This document shows, piece after piece, positions 16,107 through 41,600 of a DNA stretch of 41,908 nt; position 1 is the stretch's first letter, and each line of letters begins with the position of its first letter. The stretch lies in IMG/VR virus record IMGVR_UViG_3300048852_000023, positions 1 through 41,908 of that record; one strand, given 5' to 3'. A program made the translations under genes and the position numbers. Source of the stretch: a virus (lineage: Duplodnaviria; Caudoviricetes). Under the pieces are notes generated by a model. The model did no database searches. It was not told the origin of the DNA and worked only from the letters and a program-made list of their open reading frames with translations.

Positions 16107-16108
16107 CC

Positions 16109-16178
16109 TTGACACCGGCGGTTGAAATCCCCAAAGTCACCATGCGCCCCCACTGCGTCCAGCGGTTGGGGGCGTTTT
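16109..16178 (+). terminator. Putative late promoter (-35 TTGACA) followed by an intrinsic terminator
   Basis: TTGACA 16109-16114; stem CGCCCCCA 16145-16152 / TGGGGGCG 16167-16174 then TTTT. Confidence 0.55.
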
Positions 16179-16197
16179 GCGTTCTGAGGGCCTGGCG

Positions 16198-16587
16198 GTG
16201 CTGATCGAGGCGGACGACGGGCCGAAGGGCTTCGCTCGTAGCCCTCGGCAGTACGACGGCGGGCTTGGCAATGGCAGCGCGGCCCGGCTGAGGGATGGAT
16301 ACCAGCGGATGAGCCGGCGGGATCTGGCGCGTAAGGGGCAGGTGCTGGCGGTCGAGACCGGCAAGTCGCCGCTGGAGATGGTGCTGGGGCACGCGCGGGG
16401 CGAGGCAGCGCTGCCGAGCTCGCAGCTCCAGGCGGCGATTGCGGCGCTGCCCTACTGCCATCCGAGGCTGGCGCAGGTGCAGCACTCGGGCGGCATCGCC
16501 ATCAACCCCGACAAGGCGACGGATGCGGAACTTGCAGCTATCGCCCTCGCAGGCAGCGGCGCTGCTGCTGAAGCGGAGGGCGATTAG
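16198..16587 (+). CDS. terS: Terminase small subunit
   Basis: SPLEMVL...AAIAALPYCHPRLAQVQHSG...TDAELAAI; directly upstream of terL; start uncertain. Confidence 0.75.
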   Translation: MLIEADDGPKGFARSPRQYDGGLGNGSAARLRDGYQRMSRRDLARKGQVLAVETGKSPLEMVLGHARGEAALPSSQLQAAIAALPYCHPRLAQVQHSGGIAINPDKATDAELAAIALAGSGAAAEAEGD

Positions 16588-17992
16588 GCGCTCTCTGGCG
16601 GAGTGGTGCCGGTACGCGCTGGCTGGGCAGGGCCTGGAGCCGGCGCCGCACCATCTGCTGCTGATCGAACACCTCGAGGCGTTGGCCCGCGGCGAGATTG
16701 ACCGCCTGATGGTGGCCATGCCGCCGGGCAGCGCCAAGAGCACGTACACGAGCGTCCTGTTTCCGGCCTGGTTCTTCGCCCAGAACCCGGGCAAGACGAT
16801 GATCGCGGCGAGTCACACCGCCGAGCTGGCGGAGCGCTTCGGCCGCAAGGTGCGCAACCTTGTCTCCGAGCACAGCGCGGCGCTGGGCTATGGCCTCTCG
16901 GCCGACAGCGCCGCCGCAGGGCGGTGGGAGACGAGCGCCGGGGGCGAGTACTTCGCGGCGGGCGTGGGCGGCTCCATCACGGGCCGGCGCGCCGATCTGG
17001 CGGTGATCGACGACCCGGTGAAGTCCCGCGAGGACGCGGACAGCGCCACGATGCGCGACCGGGCATGGGACTGGTGGCGGGCCGACTTCCTGACCCGCCT
17101 GAAGCCCGGCGGCCGTGTGGCGCTGGTGATGACACGCTGGCACGAGGACGACCTCGGCGGGCGCATCCTGGACGACGCGGCCACTGGTGGGCACCCCTGG
17201 ACGGTGTTGAGCCTGCCGATGGAGGCAGAGCCTGGCGATCCGCTCGGGCGGGCCGCGGGCGAGCCGCTGTGGCCTGAGTGGTTCACGGACACGATGCGGG
17301 CCGAGGCGCGGCGGGACAGCCGTACCTGGGCCGCGCTCTACCAGCAGCGCCCCGCGCCGGACACGGGCAACTATTTCCAGCGTGAATGGCTCCGTCCGGT
17401 GGCAACCGTGCCGCCGAAGGAGAGCCTGCGCATCTACGGCGCCAGCGACTACGCGGTGACGGACGCGGGTGGCGACTACACGGTGCACGTCGTGGTCGGC
17501 ATGGACAGCGACGGGCGGCTCTGGCTGCTGGACCTCTGGCGCGGCCAGACGGACAGCAGCGTGTGGGTCGAGGCCTTCTGCGATCTGGTGCGGGCCTGGC
17601 GACCGATCGGATGGGCCGAGGAGACCGGCCAGATCCGGGCCGGCGTCGGGCCGTTCCTTGAAAGGCGGATGCGTGAGCGACAGGCCTACATCGCACGGCG
17701 TCAGTTCCCCACACGGGGAGACAAGAGCGTCCGCGCTCAATCCATCCGGGGACGCATGGCACTGGACGGTCTGCACATTCCCGCATCCGCCGCCTGGCGA
17801 GCCGATCTTGAAGCCGAGTTGCTATCATTCCCCGCGGGCAAGCATGACGACCAGGTCGATGCGCTCGGCCTCGTGGGTCAGCTGCTGGACGTGATGGTGC
17901 CGGCGGCGCCCCAGCGCCCGCAGGTGCCGCAGCAGCGTGACCGCTGGGCGCGGCGTGACCGCGACGACGCGGACAATTGGAGGGTGGCCTGA
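16523..17992 (+). CDS. terL: Terminase large subunit
   Basis: Walker A MPPGSAKST, VIDDPVK, MTRWHEDDL, nuclease SDYA...GDYT...HDDQVDAL. Confidence 0.95.
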   Translation: MRNLQLSPSQAAALLLKRRAIRRSLAEWCRYALAGQGLEPAPHHLLLIEHLEALARGEIDRLMVAMPPGSAKSTYTSVLFPAWFFAQNPGKTMIAASHTAELAERFGRKVRNLVSEHSAALGYGLSADSAAAGRWETSAGGEYFAAGVGGSITGRRADLAVIDDPVKSREDADSATMRDRAWDWWRADFLTRLKPGGRVALVMTRWHEDDLGGRILDDAATGGHPWTVLSLPMEAEPGDPLGRAAGEPLWPEWFTDTMRAEARRDSRTWAALYQQRPAPDTGNYFQREWLRPVATVPPKESLRIYGASDYAVTDAGGDYTVHVVVGMDSDGRLWLLDLWRGQTDSSVWVEAFCDLVRAWRPIGWAEETGQIRAGVGPFLERRMRERQAYIARRQFPTRGDKSVRAQSIRGRMALDGLHIPASAAWRADLEAELLSFPAGKHDDQVDALGLVGQLLDVMVPAAPQRPQVPQQRDRWARRDRDDADNWRVA

Positions 17993-18234
17993 TGACCGAA
18001 GCAGAGTTCTCAGCCCACGCCAATGCTGTTGCCAAGTCGCTGGGCGCCGACCGCGCGCTGGTAGAGGTGTTCAACTTCGGCCGGTGGCTCGGCATCCGAT
18101 TGGAGCGCGGTCAAGCCGCGTTCGCGCTCGCCGTGGGCGCTGACAGCATGGCCAGATTGTCCAAGCCCGGCGCCCTGGTTGACTTCTTCCGGGCGCACTA
18201 CGGCGCCGTGCTCGGCGCACAAGAGGCCCCATGA
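17992..18234 (+). CDS. Hypothetical protein between terL and portal
   Basis: TGATG and ATGA coupling; GGAGG RBS. Confidence 0.55.
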   Translation: MTEAEFSAHANAVAKSLGADRALVEVFNFGRWLGIRLERGQAAFALAVGADSMARLSKPGALVDFFRAHYGAVLGAQEAP

Positions 18235-20078
18235 CCCCCGCCGCGGACAGCCAGAGCGACTGGCTGGCCACCCTCTGCAGCTACTTCGAGGATGCAGAGG
18301 AAGCGACGGCGGACGCGCGCGCCAAGTCCGAGCTCTGCCGCGACTACTACGACAACAAGCAACTCTCGGCCGCCGAGAAGGCCGCGCTGGAGGCCCGCAA
18401 GCAGCCGGCCGTGACCTTCAACATGATCCGGCCCAAAGTTGACTACATGCAGGGGCTGGAGAAGCAGGCCCGGCAGGACCCGAAGGCCTATCCGCGCACG
18501 CCGAACGAGGAGGGCGGGGCCGAGGCCGCGACCGACGCGATCCGCTACGTGTGCGACGATCAGGAGTTCCCGGCCGTCGCTTCCAGCGTCTGGGAGAACC
18601 TGCTGATCGAGGGCGCCGGCGGCGTGGACGTGTGTGCCGAGCCTGGGCCTGATGGCGAGGTGCGCGTCGTGCTGAAGCGCATGGCCTGGGACCGGATGTT
18701 CTGGGACCCGCACTCGGCGCGGCCGGACTTCTCGGACGCCAAGTACCTTGGCGGCGTGACCTGGCTGGATGAGGACGACATCCTTGCCCGGTGGCCGGAC
18801 GCGGACGAGGCCATCCAGGTCAGCTACGCCACGGGCGCCGGCCAGGGCGACACCTACGACGACCGGCCGAAGTACACCGTCTGGGGCGACGGTAAGCGCA
18901 AGCGCGTGCGGGTGGCGCAGATCTACGTCCGGACCCGCGACGGCTGGATGTTCGCCACCTACACCAAGGGCGGGTTCCTGGACGAGTTCCAGCCGAGCCC
19001 GTACCTGGACGACGATGACCAGCCCGAGTGCTCGCTGATCTTCCAGAGCGCCTACGTCGACCGGGACAACAACCGGTACGGCATGGTCAAGGACCTGATC
19101 GACCCGCAGGACGAGATCAACAAGCGGCACCAGAAGGCGCTGCACCTGCTGAGCGTGCGGCAGGTCATCGCCGAGCAGGGCGCGGTGCGGGACGTGGACG
19201 CGGCGCGGCGCGAGATCGCCAAGCCTGACGGCTACCTCGAGGTGGCGCCCGGCATGCGCTTCGACATCCAGCCGACCGCGGACCTCGCCACCGGCCAGGC
19301 GCAGTTGCTCCAGGAAGCCAAGGCGTTCATGGCCACCATGGGCCCGAACGCCACCATGCAGGGCAAGCAGCAGGGCACGGCGAGCGGCCGGGCCATCGCG
19401 CTGAGCCAGCAGGGCGGCGTGATCGAGGCCGGCACGCTGCTCGACGCCCACCGGTCCTGGAAGAAGCGCGTCTATCGGGCGATCTGGAACCGCATCCGGC
19501 AGTTCTGGACCGCCGAGAAGTGGATCCGCGTCACCGACGACGAGCGCAACCTGCGCTTCGTGGGGCTGAACCAGCCGATCACGCTGGGCATGGAGCTTGA
19601 CAACATGCCGCCCGAGCAGGCGGAGCAGATCGCGGCGCAGATGGGCATCATGCCCGGCGATCCGCGGCTGCAGACGGTGCTGCGCGTCGAGAATGACGTG
19701 AAGGAGCTGACCGTCGACATCGTGGTCGACGAGATGCCAGACGTGGTGACGCTCCAGCAGGAGCAGTTCCAGACGCTGGCGGACCTGGCTAAGGCCGGCG
19801 TGCCGCTGCCGCCGCAGGAGATCATCCGGGCGTCGAGCCTGCGGAACAAGGACCAGATCCTTGAGCGCATGGAGGCCGCGCAGAAGGCGCAGGCCCAGGC
19901 GCAGAGCGGCGGGCCCGACCCGCGCATGGCCGAGGTGGAGCGCAAGGCGCAGCGGGACCAGGCCGAGATCGGGCTTGAGGCGGAGCGCGTGGGGATCGAG
20001 CGCAACCGCGCGACCGCGGACATTCTGAGCCAGGCCGTGCGGGCTTCGCAGCCGATGCAGGTACCCGTTCCCGCATAG
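18231..20078 (+). CDS. Portal protein (P22-like)
   Basis: YYDNKQ...P.VTFNMIRPKVD...FWDPHS..PDFSDAKY...YGMVKDLIDPQDEINKR; C-terminal helical barrel. Confidence 0.92.
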   Translation: MTPAADSQSDWLATLCSYFEDAEEATADARAKSELCRDYYDNKQLSAAEKAALEARKQPAVTFNMIRPKVDYMQGLEKQARQDPKAYPRTPNEEGGAEAATDAIRYVCDDQEFPAVASSVWENLLIEGAGGVDVCAEPGPDGEVRVVLKRMAWDRMFWDPHSARPDFSDAKYLGGVTWLDEDDILARWPDADEAIQVSYATGAGQGDTYDDRPKYTVWGDGKRKRVRVAQIYVRTRDGWMFATYTKGGFLDEFQPSPYLDDDDQPECSLIFQSAYVDRDNNRYGMVKDLIDPQDEINKRHQKALHLLSVRQVIAEQGAVRDVDAARREIAKPDGYLEVAPGMRFDIQPTADLATGQAQLLQEAKAFMATMGPNATMQGKQQGTASGRAIALSQQGGVIEAGTLLDAHRSWKKRVYRAIWNRIRQFWTAEKWIRVTDDERNLRFVGLNQPITLGMELDNMPPEQAEQIAAQMGIMPGDPRLQTVLRVENDVKELTVDIVVDEMPDVVTLQQEQFQTLADLAKAGVPLPPQEIIRASSLRNKDQILERMEAAQKAQAQAQSGGPDPRMAEVERKAQRDQAEIGLEAERVGIERNRATADILSQAVRASQPMQVPVPA

Positions 20079-20116
20079 GGCGGGCGCGGCAGGGAGCCCC
20101 TGCGGGGGCAGCAGAC

Positions 20117-20320
20117 ATGGCAGAGGTTGTAGAATACCGGGTGCGCCCGGTGGTTCGGTACGTCGTGACGCGGTGGCATGAGGTCGGCCCGTACCAAGCT
20201 GGCGTTGAGACCATCGGCGAGTTCGACAACGAGCACACAGCCGAGCGCGTGCGCAAGGCGCTGGAAGGCGAAGACAGCCGCGCAGTCGCAGCGAAGATGA
20301 CGAAGCAGATGCCGGCCTAA
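20117..20320 (+). CDS. Small hypothetical protein (moron-like) between portal and scaffold
   Basis: 67-aa ORF followed by a strong hairpin. Confidence 0.6.
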   Translation: MAEVVEYRVRPVVRYVVTRWHEVGPYQAGVETIGEFDNEHTAERVRKALEGEDSRAVAAKMTKQMPA

Positions 20321-20354
20321 GGGCCGCACTCCCGCTCTGCGGGATCGGTGTTCG

Positions 20355-20390
20355 CGGCAAGGGGCGCCTCCGGGCGCCCTTTGTCGTTTC
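20355..20390 (+). terminator. 14-bp stem with cUCCGg tetraloop and U-rich tail
   Basis: CGGCAAGGGGCGCC-TCCG-GGCGCCCTTTGTCG-TTTC. Confidence 0.7.
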
Positions 20391-20392
20391 AG

Positions 20393-20469
20393 GCCGACGA
20401 CGGGCTAACGGTCGATCCGCTGCCGACTGGCGAACCAGGTCGGGGCCGCCGCCAGGCTTTAACTGGGCG
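20393..20469 (+). ncRNA. Candidate cis-regulatory RNA: three tandem structured repeats in the scaffold leader
   Basis: Units 20393-20414, 20419-20442, 20445-20469 share GCYGMCGMCNGGC...N'GGKCG with compensatory base changes. Confidence 0.6.
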
Positions 20470-20483
20470 AGACAGCGTGGAAC

Positions 20484-21398
20484 ATGAGCGAGCAGGACAA
20501 CGGCGGTGGCTTCGCGCCCCCGACGATCGAGGACGTGTTTGGCCGTCGCGAGACGGCGCCGGAGCCGAAAGCCACGGGTGGGCAGCCCGAGCCGCAGGCA
20601 CCGCCGCCAGCTCCGCCGGAAACGGGCGATAAGCCGCCCGCCGAGCAGAAGCAGGACCGCCCGCGCGACGACGCAGGCCGGTTCGCGCCGAAGCAAGGCG
20701 AGCAGCAGGCCGGGCCGCCGCCGGAGAAGCACGAGCCCCAGAATGCTCCCATCGCCGCGCTGAAGGACGAGCGTGCGAAGAGGCAGCGAGCCGAGGCGGA
20801 GACGACCTACCTCCGCCAGCAGCTCGAAGCGCTGACGCGCCAGCCGCGCCCGGCGCCACAAGCGCCGCCGCAGCAGCCGCAGCAGCAGGCACCGCAGGAC
20901 TTCTGGGCTGACCCCGAGGCCTTCGTGAAGGGCGTGCGCGAGCAGGCCGTGAACGAGGCCGAGGAGCGCATGTTCCAGACGCGCCTGGCGCTGTCCGAGG
21001 CGGTGGCCCGCAAGGAGCCGGATTACGAGGAAGCGGAGCGGGCCCTTGAGGCCTTCGCCGCGACCTCGCCGGACGCCCGTGCGGAAGTCGCGAAGATGCT
21101 CCGCACCCATCCTGCGCCGGCCATGTGGGCCTTGCAGGCGGGGCGGCAGCTCCTCGCGGCGAACCGCTGGACGCCTGTCATGCAGCAGCACAGCGACCCC
21201 GAGGCGTACATCAACGCCGAGGTGGAGCGCAGGCTGCAGGAACGCATGTCGGCCGCTGCCGCACCACAGCCCGCTCCGTCCGCGCCCCCGAACCTGCCCG
21301 TGAGCCTGGCGGGAGCCCGCAACACCGCGCCGCGCAGCGGCCCGGGTTGGGCGGGGCCTCCGTCAACCCAGCAACTCTTTGGGCGCCGACCTCGCTGA
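20484..21398 (+). CDS. Capsid scaffolding protein
   Basis: Pro/Gln-rich N-terminus, PRDDAGRFA, PIAALKDERAKRQ coiled coil, P.SLA tail; immediately before the MCP. Confidence 0.85.
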   Translation: MSEQDNGGGFAPPTIEDVFGRRETAPEPKATGGQPEPQAPPPAPPETGDKPPAEQKQDRPRDDAGRFAPKQGEQQAGPPPEKHEPQNAPIAALKDERAKRQRAEAETTYLRQQLEALTRQPRPAPQAPPQQPQQQAPQDFWADPEAFVKGVREQAVNEAEERMFQTRLALSEAVARKEPDYEEAERALEAFAATSPDARAEVAKMLRTHPAPAMWALQAGRQLLAANRWTPVMQQHSDPEAYINAEVERRLQERMSAAAAPQPAPSAPPNLPVSLAGARNTAPRSGPGWAGPPSTQQLFGRRPR

Positions 21399-21424
21399 GG
21401 CGCGCCCCATAGGGGCATACGGCC

Positions 21425-22510
21425 ATGGCCGACACCTACGCAGCCTCGGGGCTTACCCCGCAGGTCTGGGACAGCAAGTTCTTCGAGGAGTACACCCAGG
21501 AGAGCCTGTTCCGCCCGTACATGGGCACCGGCGAGACCGACATCATCCAGGTCAAGGAAGACCTGACGAAGAAGTCGGGCGACAGCGTCACCTACGCGCT
21601 GGTCAACCGCCTCCGCAACGAGGGCGTCACCGGCAGCAACTCGCTGGAAGGCAACGAGGAGGACCTGTCGTCCCGCTCGTTCCGCCTGTACGTCGACAAG
21701 CTCCGCCACGGCGTGCGTGTGGCCGAGATGGAGGAGCAGCGCTCCGCCATCCCGCTGCGCAACGCGGCCCGCGCGGTGCTGAAGACCTGGGCGATGGAGA
21801 AGCTGCGCAACAACATCATCGATGCGCTGGGCTCCTTCACCACGGATGGCAAGACCTATGCCACGTCGAGCGCCTCCGAGCGCAACACCTGGCTGACCAA
21901 CAACAGCGACCGCGTGCTGTTCGGCGCCGCCATCGCCAACGCCTCGTCCAACGTCTTCGCGACGGCGCTGGCGACGCTGGACACCACCAACGACCGCTTC
22001 ACCGCCGCCGCCGCGCGGCAGATGAAGCGGATCGCGCTGGCCGCCAACCCGAAGGTCGCGCCGATCGAGGTGGGCGAGGCCGGCAAGCGGGCCTATGTGG
22101 TCTTCGTCGGCCCCCGCTGCTTCCGCGACCTGCAGACATCGCTGGAGACGATCAACAAGGACGCCATGCAGCGCGGCATGGACAACCCGCTGATCACCGG
22201 CGCCGACCTGCACTATGACGGCCTCGTCTTCAAGCTGGTGGACGACATCGCCGTCCTGTCCGGCGTCGGCGCCTCCAGCGCGGACGTGGAGCCGGTCTAC
22301 CTCTGCGGCACGCAGGCGGTGGGCCTGGCCTGGGCCAAGCGCACCACCTCGCGGACCGAGGAGTTCGACTACGGCGACAAGTTCGGCGTGGCGATCGAGG
22401 AGATCCGCGGCGTCCGCAAGCTGATGTTCGGCTCGGGCTCCAGCGACACCACCACCCCGAAGGACAACGGCCTCGTGACCGGGTTCTTCGCCGCTCCGGC
22501 CGATGCGTGA
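21425..22510 (+). CDS. Major capsid protein (N4-gp56/DUF4043-like)
   Basis: VW.SKFF.EY...IIQVKEDLTKKSGDSVT..L...GVTG...LEGNEE.L...DYG...G. Confidence 0.92.
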   Translation: MADTYAASGLTPQVWDSKFFEEYTQESLFRPYMGTGETDIIQVKEDLTKKSGDSVTYALVNRLRNEGVTGSNSLEGNEEDLSSRSFRLYVDKLRHGVRVAEMEEQRSAIPLRNAARAVLKTWAMEKLRNNIIDALGSFTTDGKTYATSSASERNTWLTNNSDRVLFGAAIANASSNVFATALATLDTTNDRFTAAAARQMKRIALAANPKVAPIEVGEAGKRAYVVFVGPRCFRDLQTSLETINKDAMQRGMDNPLITGADLHYDGLVFKLVDDIAVLSGVGASSADVEPVYLCGTQAVGLAWAKRTTSRTEEFDYGDKFGVAIEEIRGVRKLMFGSGSSDTTTPKDNGLVTGFFAAPADA

Positions 22511-36282: not shown

Positions 36283-36473
36283 GCGACGAGGACGAGCGCC
36301 TCCGCAAGCTGGAGCGCGACGTGGCCGTGCACGAGGCGGTCTGCGCCGAGCGGTACAAGGGCATCATGCTGCGGCTGAACGTGGTGATGGCCCTGCTGCT
36401 GACGCTGGTGGGCGCGGCGGCGATGGGCAATCCCGTGGTTGCCGCGGTGCGGCAGATCCTAGGGGGAGGGTGA
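36279..36473 (+). CDS. Small lysis-region membrane protein (coiled coil + TM)
   Basis: LERDVAVHEAVCAERY followed by a TM helix; coupled. Confidence 0.65.
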   Translation: MSDEDERLRKLERDVAVHEAVCAERYKGIMLRLNVVMALLLTLVGAAAMGNPVVAAVRQILGGG

Positions 36474-37471
36474 TGACCCGCCCCGGCGTCTCCGATGAGG
36501 ACCTCGTCCGCATCTGGGACGAGGAGGGCGGCAGCCCGGCGCGCGTGGCCGCCCGGATCGGCGTGAGCGTGCGCAATGTCCACTACCGTCGTGTCAGGCT
36601 GGAGAGGCAAGGCCACATGCTGGACGCCGCCGACCCCCAAATGGCGCGGCGGTTCCGCTGCGCCTATCCCCGCCGGGCCTTCCTTGAGATAGAGGATGGC
36701 GTGGCGCTGGCCTTCGGAGATGGTCACTGCCTGCCGGTGGAGTGGCGCGAGGACGGCGACACGCCGGCCATGGCCGCCGCGCTCCGGCTGGCCGAGGATC
36801 TGCAGCCGACGCACCTCCTGTGCATGGGCGACATGCTCGACGGCGCTTCCATCTCCCGGCATCCGCCGCTGGGGTGGGAGGTGAAGCCGAGGGTCGAGGA
36901 CGAGCTCGGCGCGGTGCAGCATGACCTCTCCAGGCTGCGGCGGGCGGCGCCGAATGCCAAGCCGGTCTGGATCGTGGGCAACCATGATGAGCGCTACGAC
37001 CGCACCCTGGCGCAGCGCGTGCCGGACTTCCGCGACGTGCTCGGCACCAGCCTGTCCGACAGCTTCCCCGATTGGGCCATGTCCTGGTCGCTGGAGATCA
37101 ACGGCGCCCTGGTGGCGGTGCACCGGTGGCACGCCGGCGTGCACGCGGCCTGGAACAACGTGATGAAATCCGGCGGCGCGCACCTCATCACCGGCGACAC
37201 GCATCGCCTGACGCTGCGGGCGTACACCGGGCAGATCGGGCAAATCTACGCGGTGGAGTGCGGCACGCTGGCCGATCCGCGCGGCCGGCAGTTCGAGTAC
37301 ACGCGGGGCCTCGATCCCAACTGGCAGGCCGGCTTCGCCGTGCTGACGTGGCGCGGCGGCGTGCTGATGCCCCCGGAGCTCTGCCAGGTGGACAACGCCG
37401 GGGTGGCGTGGTTCCGCGGCCGGGCGATCGCCGGCAAGCCGCGGGTCCGCGTGAAGGCGAGAGCGGCGTGA
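36470..37471 (+). CDS. HTH + calcineurin-like metallophosphoesterase
   Basis: GDGH, GDMLD, GNHD, H, GDTH motifs; N-terminal SPARVAARIGVSVRNVHYR. Confidence 0.85.
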   Translation: MMTRPGVSDEDLVRIWDEEGGSPARVAARIGVSVRNVHYRRVRLERQGHMLDAADPQMARRFRCAYPRRAFLEIEDGVALAFGDGHCLPVEWREDGDTPAMAAALRLAEDLQPTHLLCMGDMLDGASISRHPPLGWEVKPRVEDELGAVQHDLSRLRRAAPNAKPVWIVGNHDERYDRTLAQRVPDFRDVLGTSLSDSFPDWAMSWSLEINGALVAVHRWHAGVHAAWNNVMKSGGAHLITGDTHRLTLRAYTGQIGQIYAVECGTLADPRGRQFEYTRGLDPNWQAGFAVLTWRGGVLMPPELCQVDNAGVAWFRGRAIAGKPRVRVKARAA

Positions 37472-40349: not shown

Positions 40350-40392
40350 CGGGCGCGTAGCTCAGCGGGAGAGCATCGCCTTGACATGGCGG
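40350..40392 (+). repeat. Right attachment site (43-bp direct repeat)
   Basis: Identical to 85-127. Confidence 0.95.
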
Positions 40393-40422
40393 GGGTCACA
40401 GGTTCAATCCCTGTCGCGCCCA
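40351..40422 (+). tRNA. tRNA-Val (GAC), CCA not encoded
   Basis: Acceptor GGGCGCG/CGCGCCC-A, D arm, anticodon arm TCGCC-TTGACAT-GGCGG, T arm ACAGG-TTCAATC-CCTGT. Confidence 0.97.
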
Positions 40423-41311: not shown

Positions 41312-41600
41312 CCGTCTGCTTCCTTCGCGGTGGCCAGGACGAGGGCCGGCGCGCGGAACGCAGATCTCCTCCTGGAAACCTGTTCCGCATGCATGCCTGT
41401 GTTGCAGTGCGAAAAACCGCTTGCGTGCGAGTGATTGCGCCCCTAAATTCCCTTTCGCAGCAGCACGGCACTGCCGTGTTGTCTGTCTTTCTTGGACGTT
41501 TCCTCCCTAAACTCGGCGGTGCCGCAAGGCACCGCCTTTTTTTTCGTTCAACGGGGAAATGATCGGTGGGCGCCGATCCGCGGCCAATCAGCCCAGGCTT

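Follow-up and report, generated by a model that had tools for sequence, protein, structure and literature searches.

The window, by which we mean the whole stretch of DNA analysed, is a complete 41.9-kb virus record, of a temperate phage, that encodes an integrase, a repressor, a terminase, a P22-like portal and a PF13252 major capsid protein (MCP). In and around its head module, in which three short tandem units stand ahead of a putative scaffold gene, lie the following features (S1 and S2 are the two stems of a unit, L3 is a loop, and SD is the Shine-Dalgarno sequence).

16439-17992: terminase
18231-20078 (+): P22-like portal (PF16510, HMM match), the upstream boundary of the module
20117-20320 (+): 67-codon ORF (ORF67) without family match, missing from a close relative (run X2)
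20330-20344 (+): small 6-bp hairpin just past the ORF67 stop
20355-20386 (+): terminator-like 14-bp hairpin directly 5' of the array, its U-run largely paired
20393-20414 (+): unit A, predicted pseudoknot; S1 20393-20395/20403-20405, S2 20398-20402/20409-20414 with a bulged G, L3 of 3 nt
20419-20442 (+): unit B; S1 with one U-G pair, S2 pair 10 U-A, L3 of 5 nt
20445-20469 (+): unit C; S2 pair 10 A-U (G-C in the close relative), L3 of 6 nt
20470-20483 (+): 14-nt spacer with a weak SD match
20484-21398 (+): putative scaffolding protein of 304 aa, by pairwise identity to the Pam5 scaffold; no HMM match
21404-21416 (+): predicted 5-bp hairpin containing the capsid SD, just past the scaffold stop
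21425-22510 (+): MCP (PF13252, phrog_334; PDB relatives 9vye and 7eel)

In pairwise comparison, the 304-aa product shares 31% identity (E 1e-20) with the Pam5 scaffolding protein, so annotated by its depositors, and matches Pam1 weakly (E 0.003); an HMM search with this ORF gives no hit. It has both the homology to an annotated scaffold and the place before the capsid by which a scaffold is recognized. The SD in the spacer measures only -4 to -4.8 kcal/mol, against a median of -6.85 in relatives. Because the predicted 5-bp hairpin covers the MCP SD behind the scaffold stop, its position suggests that the leader could govern both genes, possibly by translational coupling of scaffold and capsid. 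A consensus scan found no sigma-70 promoter between 14500 and 24000, and a scan of 15 ORFs, near the late promoter region and in other places, turned up no NusG- or Q-like antiterminator. At 16108-16185 (+), 5' of the terminase genes, TTGACA is followed about 35 nt on by a GC-rich hairpin with a U-rich tail, possibly a late promoter plus attenuator, although the consensus scan does not call this promoter-like element. A metallophosphoesterase gene (36470-37471, +) lies ahead of the endolysin gene, and the right end of the record holds a tRNA (40351-40422, +) and an mmgR/suhB small RNA match (41478-41551, +), the latter pointing to an alphaproteobacterial host. Positions 20000-21600 recur identically in a public contig of run X1, which is possibly from the same source DNA and hence not independent.

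The three units had been picked out in a sequence-only reading, and their coordinates and letters are exactly as given there. Nucleotides 1-3 can pair with nucleotides 11-13 in every unit (with one U-G in unit B), position 8 runs A-U/A-U/C-G and position 10 runs G-C/U-A/A-U across A/B/C, and 14 nt with a weak SD separate the end of the array from the scaffold ATG at 20484; each of these points had been claimed and stands. A descriptor of the unit matches five times on the plus strand of the window and never on the minus strand; in order-3 Markov simulations this descriptor, which was tuned post hoc after the data were seen, matched 4.6 times per window, and none of 100 runs placed even a pair of matches within 60 nt. 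Inside the window, S1 shows no covariation (GCY/GGC in every unit), and the folding of single units is no stronger than that of shuffles (z from -0.58 to +0.07 in ViennaRNA, which cannot form pseudoknots), so that the proof of structure comes from relatives. The close relative of run X2 (one contig) has two matching changes, 20454 A>G and 20464 T>C, that turn pair 10 of unit C from A-U into G-C; about 26 nt, one unit length, are missing from it. An alternative pairing of unit B with unit C (CUGGCG/CGCCAG) was rejected; it lacks Rfam support and, by eye, is not kept in relatives.

Relatives were collected both by MCP search and by unit-pattern search. Of 214 loci with an MCP start, 33 were dropped (short flank or partial capsid), and the 181 kept were reduced to 78 representatives below 80% identity. 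Canonical units are present in one to four copies in 70 of these 78 and absent from eight, among which L024 carries two variant units whose position 6 forms a U-A pair, and L009 and L044 have a different leader. The consensus reads N1N2N3-G4-H5-C6R7M8C9-N10-N11N12N13-loop(2-8 nt, A/U-rich)-N-G-G-K-Y-G and is predicted to form an H-type pseudoknot with a 3-bp S1, a 5-bp S2 interrupted by a bulged G, and loops L1 of 2 nt, L2 of 0 nt and L3 of 2-8 nt; these lengths are compatible with both stems being formed together. When matches were selected on the S2 core alone, leaving S1 unselected, S1 was fully paired in 124/139 core matches upstream of MCP versus 5/107 elsewhere. At the third S1 pair, where the other two are Watson-Crick, G-U occurs 16 times and A-C once, a bias that indicates RNA of the sense strand. 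Across 42 aligned units, 96.4% of cells are paired (slid controls, at most 48.6%), and the covariation score of 0.557 was reached by 0/500 shuffles, which ignore kinship, and by no slid control (at most 0.125). Two-sided changes in this alignment affect all three S1 pairs and S2 pairs 8 and 10, and S2 pairs 7 and 6 also change in step across relatives, so that compensatory change, the test of an H-type pseudoknot, is found in both interleaved stems. The covariation of the S1 pairs favours the pseudoknot over a bare bulged hairpin, the other fold offered at the outset, as the selected structure. Units number 150 upstream of MCP, versus 8 elsewhere and 9 antisense (515 kb); G4, C9 and GG are near-invariant (137-139 of 148 relaxed matches, in windows chosen by canonical units), and 48 of 76 inter-unit spacers measure 2-5 nt. 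Selection on RNA structure, first proposed from the window, is thus upheld by strand specificity and by the compensatory changes in both stems. The three units represent a conserved RNA motif that is strand-specific and has a predicted pseudoknot fold.

A covariance model, the check that had been proposed for the family, was built, with S2 only, but it had no power and barely or not at all recovered the window units; unit A, a member of the training set, scored E 0.007 and unit C E 0.35, and unit B was absent among its 139 hits. The motif accordingly escapes covariance models that leave out the pseudoknot. Annotated phages Pam1, Pam5, Pan3 and CBW1004C-Prop1 have two units each and prophages of named isolates also carry the motif, while the more distant KLEP18-1 and RHph_Y1_10 have no canonical units. 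Two single-unit patterns match an estimated 600 and 700 or so stored IMG/VR stretches, with head-module context in 65/80 and 52/80 inspected matches, and 25 of 31 pattern matches in metagenome contigs lie in a head module. One loose single-unit pattern had 12/80 matches in head-gene context and 68/80 without, and its matches are mostly chance.

The uncatalogued status suggested for the motif was confirmed in Rfam 15, where no family matched the units, even at E ≤ 10, or 40 related loci. It is also not described in the literature searched, a search that excluded most subscription papers and covered the 2017 survey of 224 motifs only via Rfam, and blastn of the window leader against annotated phages returned only short chance or hairpin matches. 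The upstream pseudoknot domain of tobamoviruses comprises three consecutive small pseudoknots that aid stability and translation; unlike the array, it lies in a eukaryotic 3' UTR. STAXI (RF01728) resembles the array as a pseudoknot in two to three tandem copies, found by comparative genomics and of unknown function, but differs in lying near DNA-handling genes of Enterobacteriales and in having UUCG tetraloops (PMC2864571, partial text); the array has portal/scaffold/capsid context in place of ssb, topoisomerase or integrase genes, and variable A/U-rich loops in place of UUCG. GP20-a (RF02991), GP20-b (RF03003) and the RNAs of Fremin et al. are likewise candidate cis-regulators directly 5' of scaffold-type genes, but they are single motifs of 72-107 nt (PMC10690425, partial text), and Rfam scans gave no GP20-a/b match to the array units. 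In supplementary files 3-6 of Fremin et al., compared by strings, the motif strings do not occur; one of their candidates, DNAVirus_5306, precedes a "Phage-scaffold" gene (PMC10690425). We regard the motif as real, widespread and uncatalogued, and its function is what we infer below.

Other structures surround the array. The hairpin at 20355-20386 had been read as a terminator; the strong 14-bp stem is there (z -5.1), but the U-run lies mostly inside it and the terminator scan does not call it. Only a looser script flags it, and that script finds terminator-like hairpins in this operon in 21/70 loci. The run X2 relative carries three one-sided, pair-preserving changes in this stem. Directly 5' of the array in L030, L032, L034, L047, L054, L055, L058, L080, L106 and L202, a hairpin CGUC-GWGAN-GACG recurs with varying stems. 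In one clade (L009, L044, L046, L048, L050, L051 and L059) the array is replaced by another conserved scaffold leader, made up of a hairpin with a CGGUAA loop and a CGUC-GAGA-GACG hairpin, for which Rfam has no match. In L203, L014, L082, L109, L205, L214, L065, L115, L229 and others, an extra non-canonical knot with a CGT...ACG-type S1 lies between the last canonical unit and the scaffold start; its loop pairs with or beside the SD, with matched changes CCU/AGG, CUA/UAG, UCCU/AGGA and AUCC/GGAU. By eye, KLEP18-1 and RHph_Y1_10 also have such an SD-pairing knot. Among 22 hand-picked leaders it is individually significant (p ≤ 0.05) in five and missing from one, which is suggestive only, and it is not present in the window leader.

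Within the window's family the array always lies 5' of the MCP gene, and the adjoining gene may be scaffold, capsid or a small ORF. The order portal-array-scaffold-MCP is found in 61/78 representatives and the array directly before MCP in 9/78; units stand only before the scaffold in 61/78, only before MCP in 8/78 and in both places in 1/78. On the MCP tree (FastTree, midpoint root), placement at MCP implies no fewer than two changes. In a large clade (L148, L105, L222, L238 and near relatives) the scaffold often begins about 15 nt past the portal, with the array behind the scaffold stop. L218 (scaffold-portal-array-MCP) and L226 (scaffold-terminase-portal-array-MCP) have no unit at the scaffold and keep two to three units between portal and MCP. 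In three gene orders, then, the array is found past the portal and ahead of the capsid. Arrays stand at both places in L320 and L383, where a small inserted ORF occupies the slot behind the first. The last unit lies 2-123 nt from the start codon across leaders, at 42-123 nt in the nine capsid-type leaders and at 10-18 nt in 34/60 scaffold-type leaders. In 21/69 loci the first unit begins within 20 nt of the upstream stop, which leaves no room for an intergenic promoter and makes the array internal to a polycistronic message in at least these loci. Leaders with more units tend to have a weaker SD (rho 0.34, p 0.009; start choice is biased and kin are not independent). In L334 (2650-3230), an antisense HNH endonuclease-like gene, so identified by eye, is inserted at the array, which now lies 620 nt from MCP; the insertion is probably recent. 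In L390 (minus strand), an HNH-like gene lies between two arrays, with two units duplicated around the insert.

The motif also occurs outside this family. Three units stand ahead of a Mu-gpT-like capsid module in L393 and L394. A single unit is found 12-30 nt ahead of a gene that encodes a scaffold or occupies its position in L599 (a PF06810 scaffold), L574, L360, L603, L620 and L614, whose modules are of HK97 type, gpT type and SU10-portal type; in the single-unit leaders of unrelated phages the unit ends 12-25 nt before the start. The scaffolds that follow identical cores show faint kinship at most, with profile matches to 2/8 other-family proteins (E 1e-4 to 5e-4). Two exceptions to head-protein context are L604, with one unit before a small terminase with a good SD, and L695, where a gene for a TPP-binding enzyme follows two units. 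Phages related to L568 have units or their S1 hairpins within the scaffold gene itself, in most cases between +63 and +150 of its reading frame; full S1 is present in 20/27 core matches (15 lineages), with non-synonymous compensations. L716-L767 encode a unit or S1 hairpin in-frame in the Ala/Gly-rich N-terminal linker of LQxF-type scaffolds and have a second small conserved structure just 5' of the SD. The LQxF motif of L568-type scaffolds is characteristic of Firmicutes phages. Array hosts are mostly Alphaproteobacteria, and include Lysobacteraceae and Hydrogenophaga.

What the array does has to be read from its distribution, and several readings compete. That it is a DNA-level site or a chance GC-rich repeat is hardly credible. 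Single units do arise in simulation at 4.6 per window, and the loose pattern lies mostly (68/80) away from head genes, but the S1 pairing (124/139 vs 5/107), the G-U excess over A-C (16 vs 1), the concentration upstream of MCP (150 units vs 8 elsewhere and 9 antisense) and a covariation score beyond all 500 shuffles speak against it, and the covariation largely refutes it. A ligand- or ion-binding aptamer repeat, a put-like antitermination RNA or a procapsid-nucleating RNA is quite improbable. The conserved loop G and bulged G at the helix junction resemble the ligand pockets of small pseudoknot riboswitches, and terminator-like hairpins lie within the operon in 21/70 loci; these hairpins, however, are 5' of the array and out of reach of a nascent RNA element, the array has no conserved expression platform and a variable distance to the ribosome-binding site (RBS), and no Rfam riboswitch matched even at E ≤ 10. 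A likeness to ZTP or guanidine-II riboswitches also found no Rfam support. An operator, in which an oligomeric scaffold (as in P22) or the capsid protein would bind two to three knots and block the RBS, is unlikely. For P22, Casjens and Adams and Wyckoff and Casjens reportedly described, in 1985, autoregulation of gene 8, with post-transcriptional control at the scaffold gene; we know of no pseudoknot array in P22. That precedent, the strong preference for scaffold starts among unrelated head modules, the units that lie past the scaffold start, in coding sequence, in another phage group and the invariant bases would suit an operator, as would the pseudoknot operator of T4 gene 32 (PMC3014915, partial text). 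The scaffold-binding form of it, which the sequence-only reading had put forward, is nevertheless weakened, as the array stays with the capsid gene when the scaffold is upstream or elsewhere: units are missing at the scaffold and present at the capsid in at least two independent lineages, 8/78 representatives have units only before MCP, and the scaffolds of L218 and L226 have none, so that obligate linkage to the scaffold start fails. The same invariant bases, in identical cores, moreover precede unrelated or faintly related scaffolds. The one arginine motif tested, RDxxGRF, considered as an RNA-binding partner motif, is present in only 16/60 array-bearing scaffolds and does not track the array.

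A part in translation initiation, with the knots binding ribosomal protein S1/30S as a standby site beside the SD and raising head-gene translation, is a possibility that we find doubtful; in a variant, head-gene translation would be gated where the last knot holds the SD. It would suit the distance of 10-18 nt from last unit to ATG in 34/60 scaffold leaders, the weak SD of the window and the tendency of unit number to rise as the SD weakens, and many longer leaders can be drawn with the extra knot, its 3' strand overlapping the SD (5/22 at p ≤ 0.05). In tisB, a 5' pseudoknot is required for S1/30S to bind 100 nt away from the RBS; it resembles the array in being a pseudoknot in the leader of a processed mRNA, with possible action far from the RBS, but it is a single knot on a toxin-antitoxin mRNA with a sequestered RBS (PMC7708055, as far as the available text goes). 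Set against this are the start distances of 42-123 nt in capsid-type leaders (620 nt in L334), the ordinary SDs of most relatives, the scarcity of A/U-rich single strand in the window leader, and the copies within scaffold coding sequence, which cannot be upstream standby sites.

The best explanation, to which we give a probability of roughly 40%, is that the array may act as a stacked obstacle to 5'-initiated decay of the scaffold-capsid mRNA segment. The adjoining gene, the scaffold family and the start-codon distance all vary, and the one constant is a capsid cistron downstream, which speaks for a role with a host factor or with no partner at all, rather than for a scaffold operator; that the same core precedes unrelated scaffolds and capsids likewise argues against a phage-specific partner. 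Each unit would stack 8 bp coaxially, with G4 and the bulged G perhaps forming base triples at the junction, and units 2-5 nt apart, as 48/76 spacers allow, would together form one long discontinuity. Once an endonuclease had cut upstream, scanning by RNase E (or RNase J where present) would be slowed at the array, the scaffold-capsid part of the late mRNA would outlive the terminase-portal part, and head-protein output would rise without a promoter or a phage-encoded ligand. Engineered reporters provide a parallel: H-type pseudoknots of 8-15 coaxial bp in the 5' UTR impede RNase E scanning in proportion to their length and protect downstream RNA, the 8-bp knot being the weakest obstacle tested; those knots come from eukaryotic viruses, and the portion of the paper available reports no natural tandem phage array (PMC9943677). 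The gene 32 leader of T4, T2 and RB69 is also a coaxial H-type pseudoknot on a phage mRNA, the most stable in T4, with an RNase E cut at -71, just 5' of the knot; unlike the array it is single and larger, precedes a replication gene, lacks tandem units and a bulged-G core, and is bound through an AU-rich tract by its own ssDNA-binding product (PMC3014915, partial text). An operator of that type sits before the gene of its binder, and the gene adjoining the array varies (scaffold, capsid, small ORF, small terminase). In-frame copies in the other phage group could protect only the downstream capsid cistron. The roadblock had been proposed as specific to RNase J, and this narrower form loses ground: a full-length RNase J match is present in 4/4 alphaproteobacterial hosts and absent from 4/5 gamma/beta-proteobacterial host genomes with arrays (genome completeness not given). 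Several observations weigh against a decay barrier of any kind. The 10-18 nt between last unit and start in 34/60 leaders fit a translation role at least as well, the 25 nt 5' of the array have an AU content little above that of coding DNA (0.46 vs 0.41) and thus offer no clear RNase E site, the near-invariant G4, C9 and GG could equally mark a binding surface, and the small terminase of L604 and the TPP enzyme of L695 are not high-copy head proteins. The decay-barrier, translation-element and head-protein-operator readings are not mutually exclusive.

Phages produce portal, scaffold and capsid at widely differing levels, in many cases from a single late transcript; to our knowledge, the cis elements that set head-protein ratios are little understood except in a handful of model phages. 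Tentatively, and as something less than probable, we suggest that the 21-25-nt, 8-bp pseudoknot with its conserved G/bulged-G core could be a portable, stackable "stoichiometry module" of unrelated tailed phages that blocks host mRNA decay; with the same reserve, it may be placed at the front of, and even inside, head-protein genes of phages with Proteobacteria and Clostridia-like hosts. The motif is tiny, tandem, strongly covarying and common to unrelated head modules. Whether as a decay barrier or as a landing site for S1, it would provide a compact part with which to tune expression inside operons. If the stoichiometry reading is true, it would rank among the smallest natural nuclease barriers and would explain in general, at the level of RNA, how hundreds of capsid subunits but only a dozen portals arise from a single late transcript.
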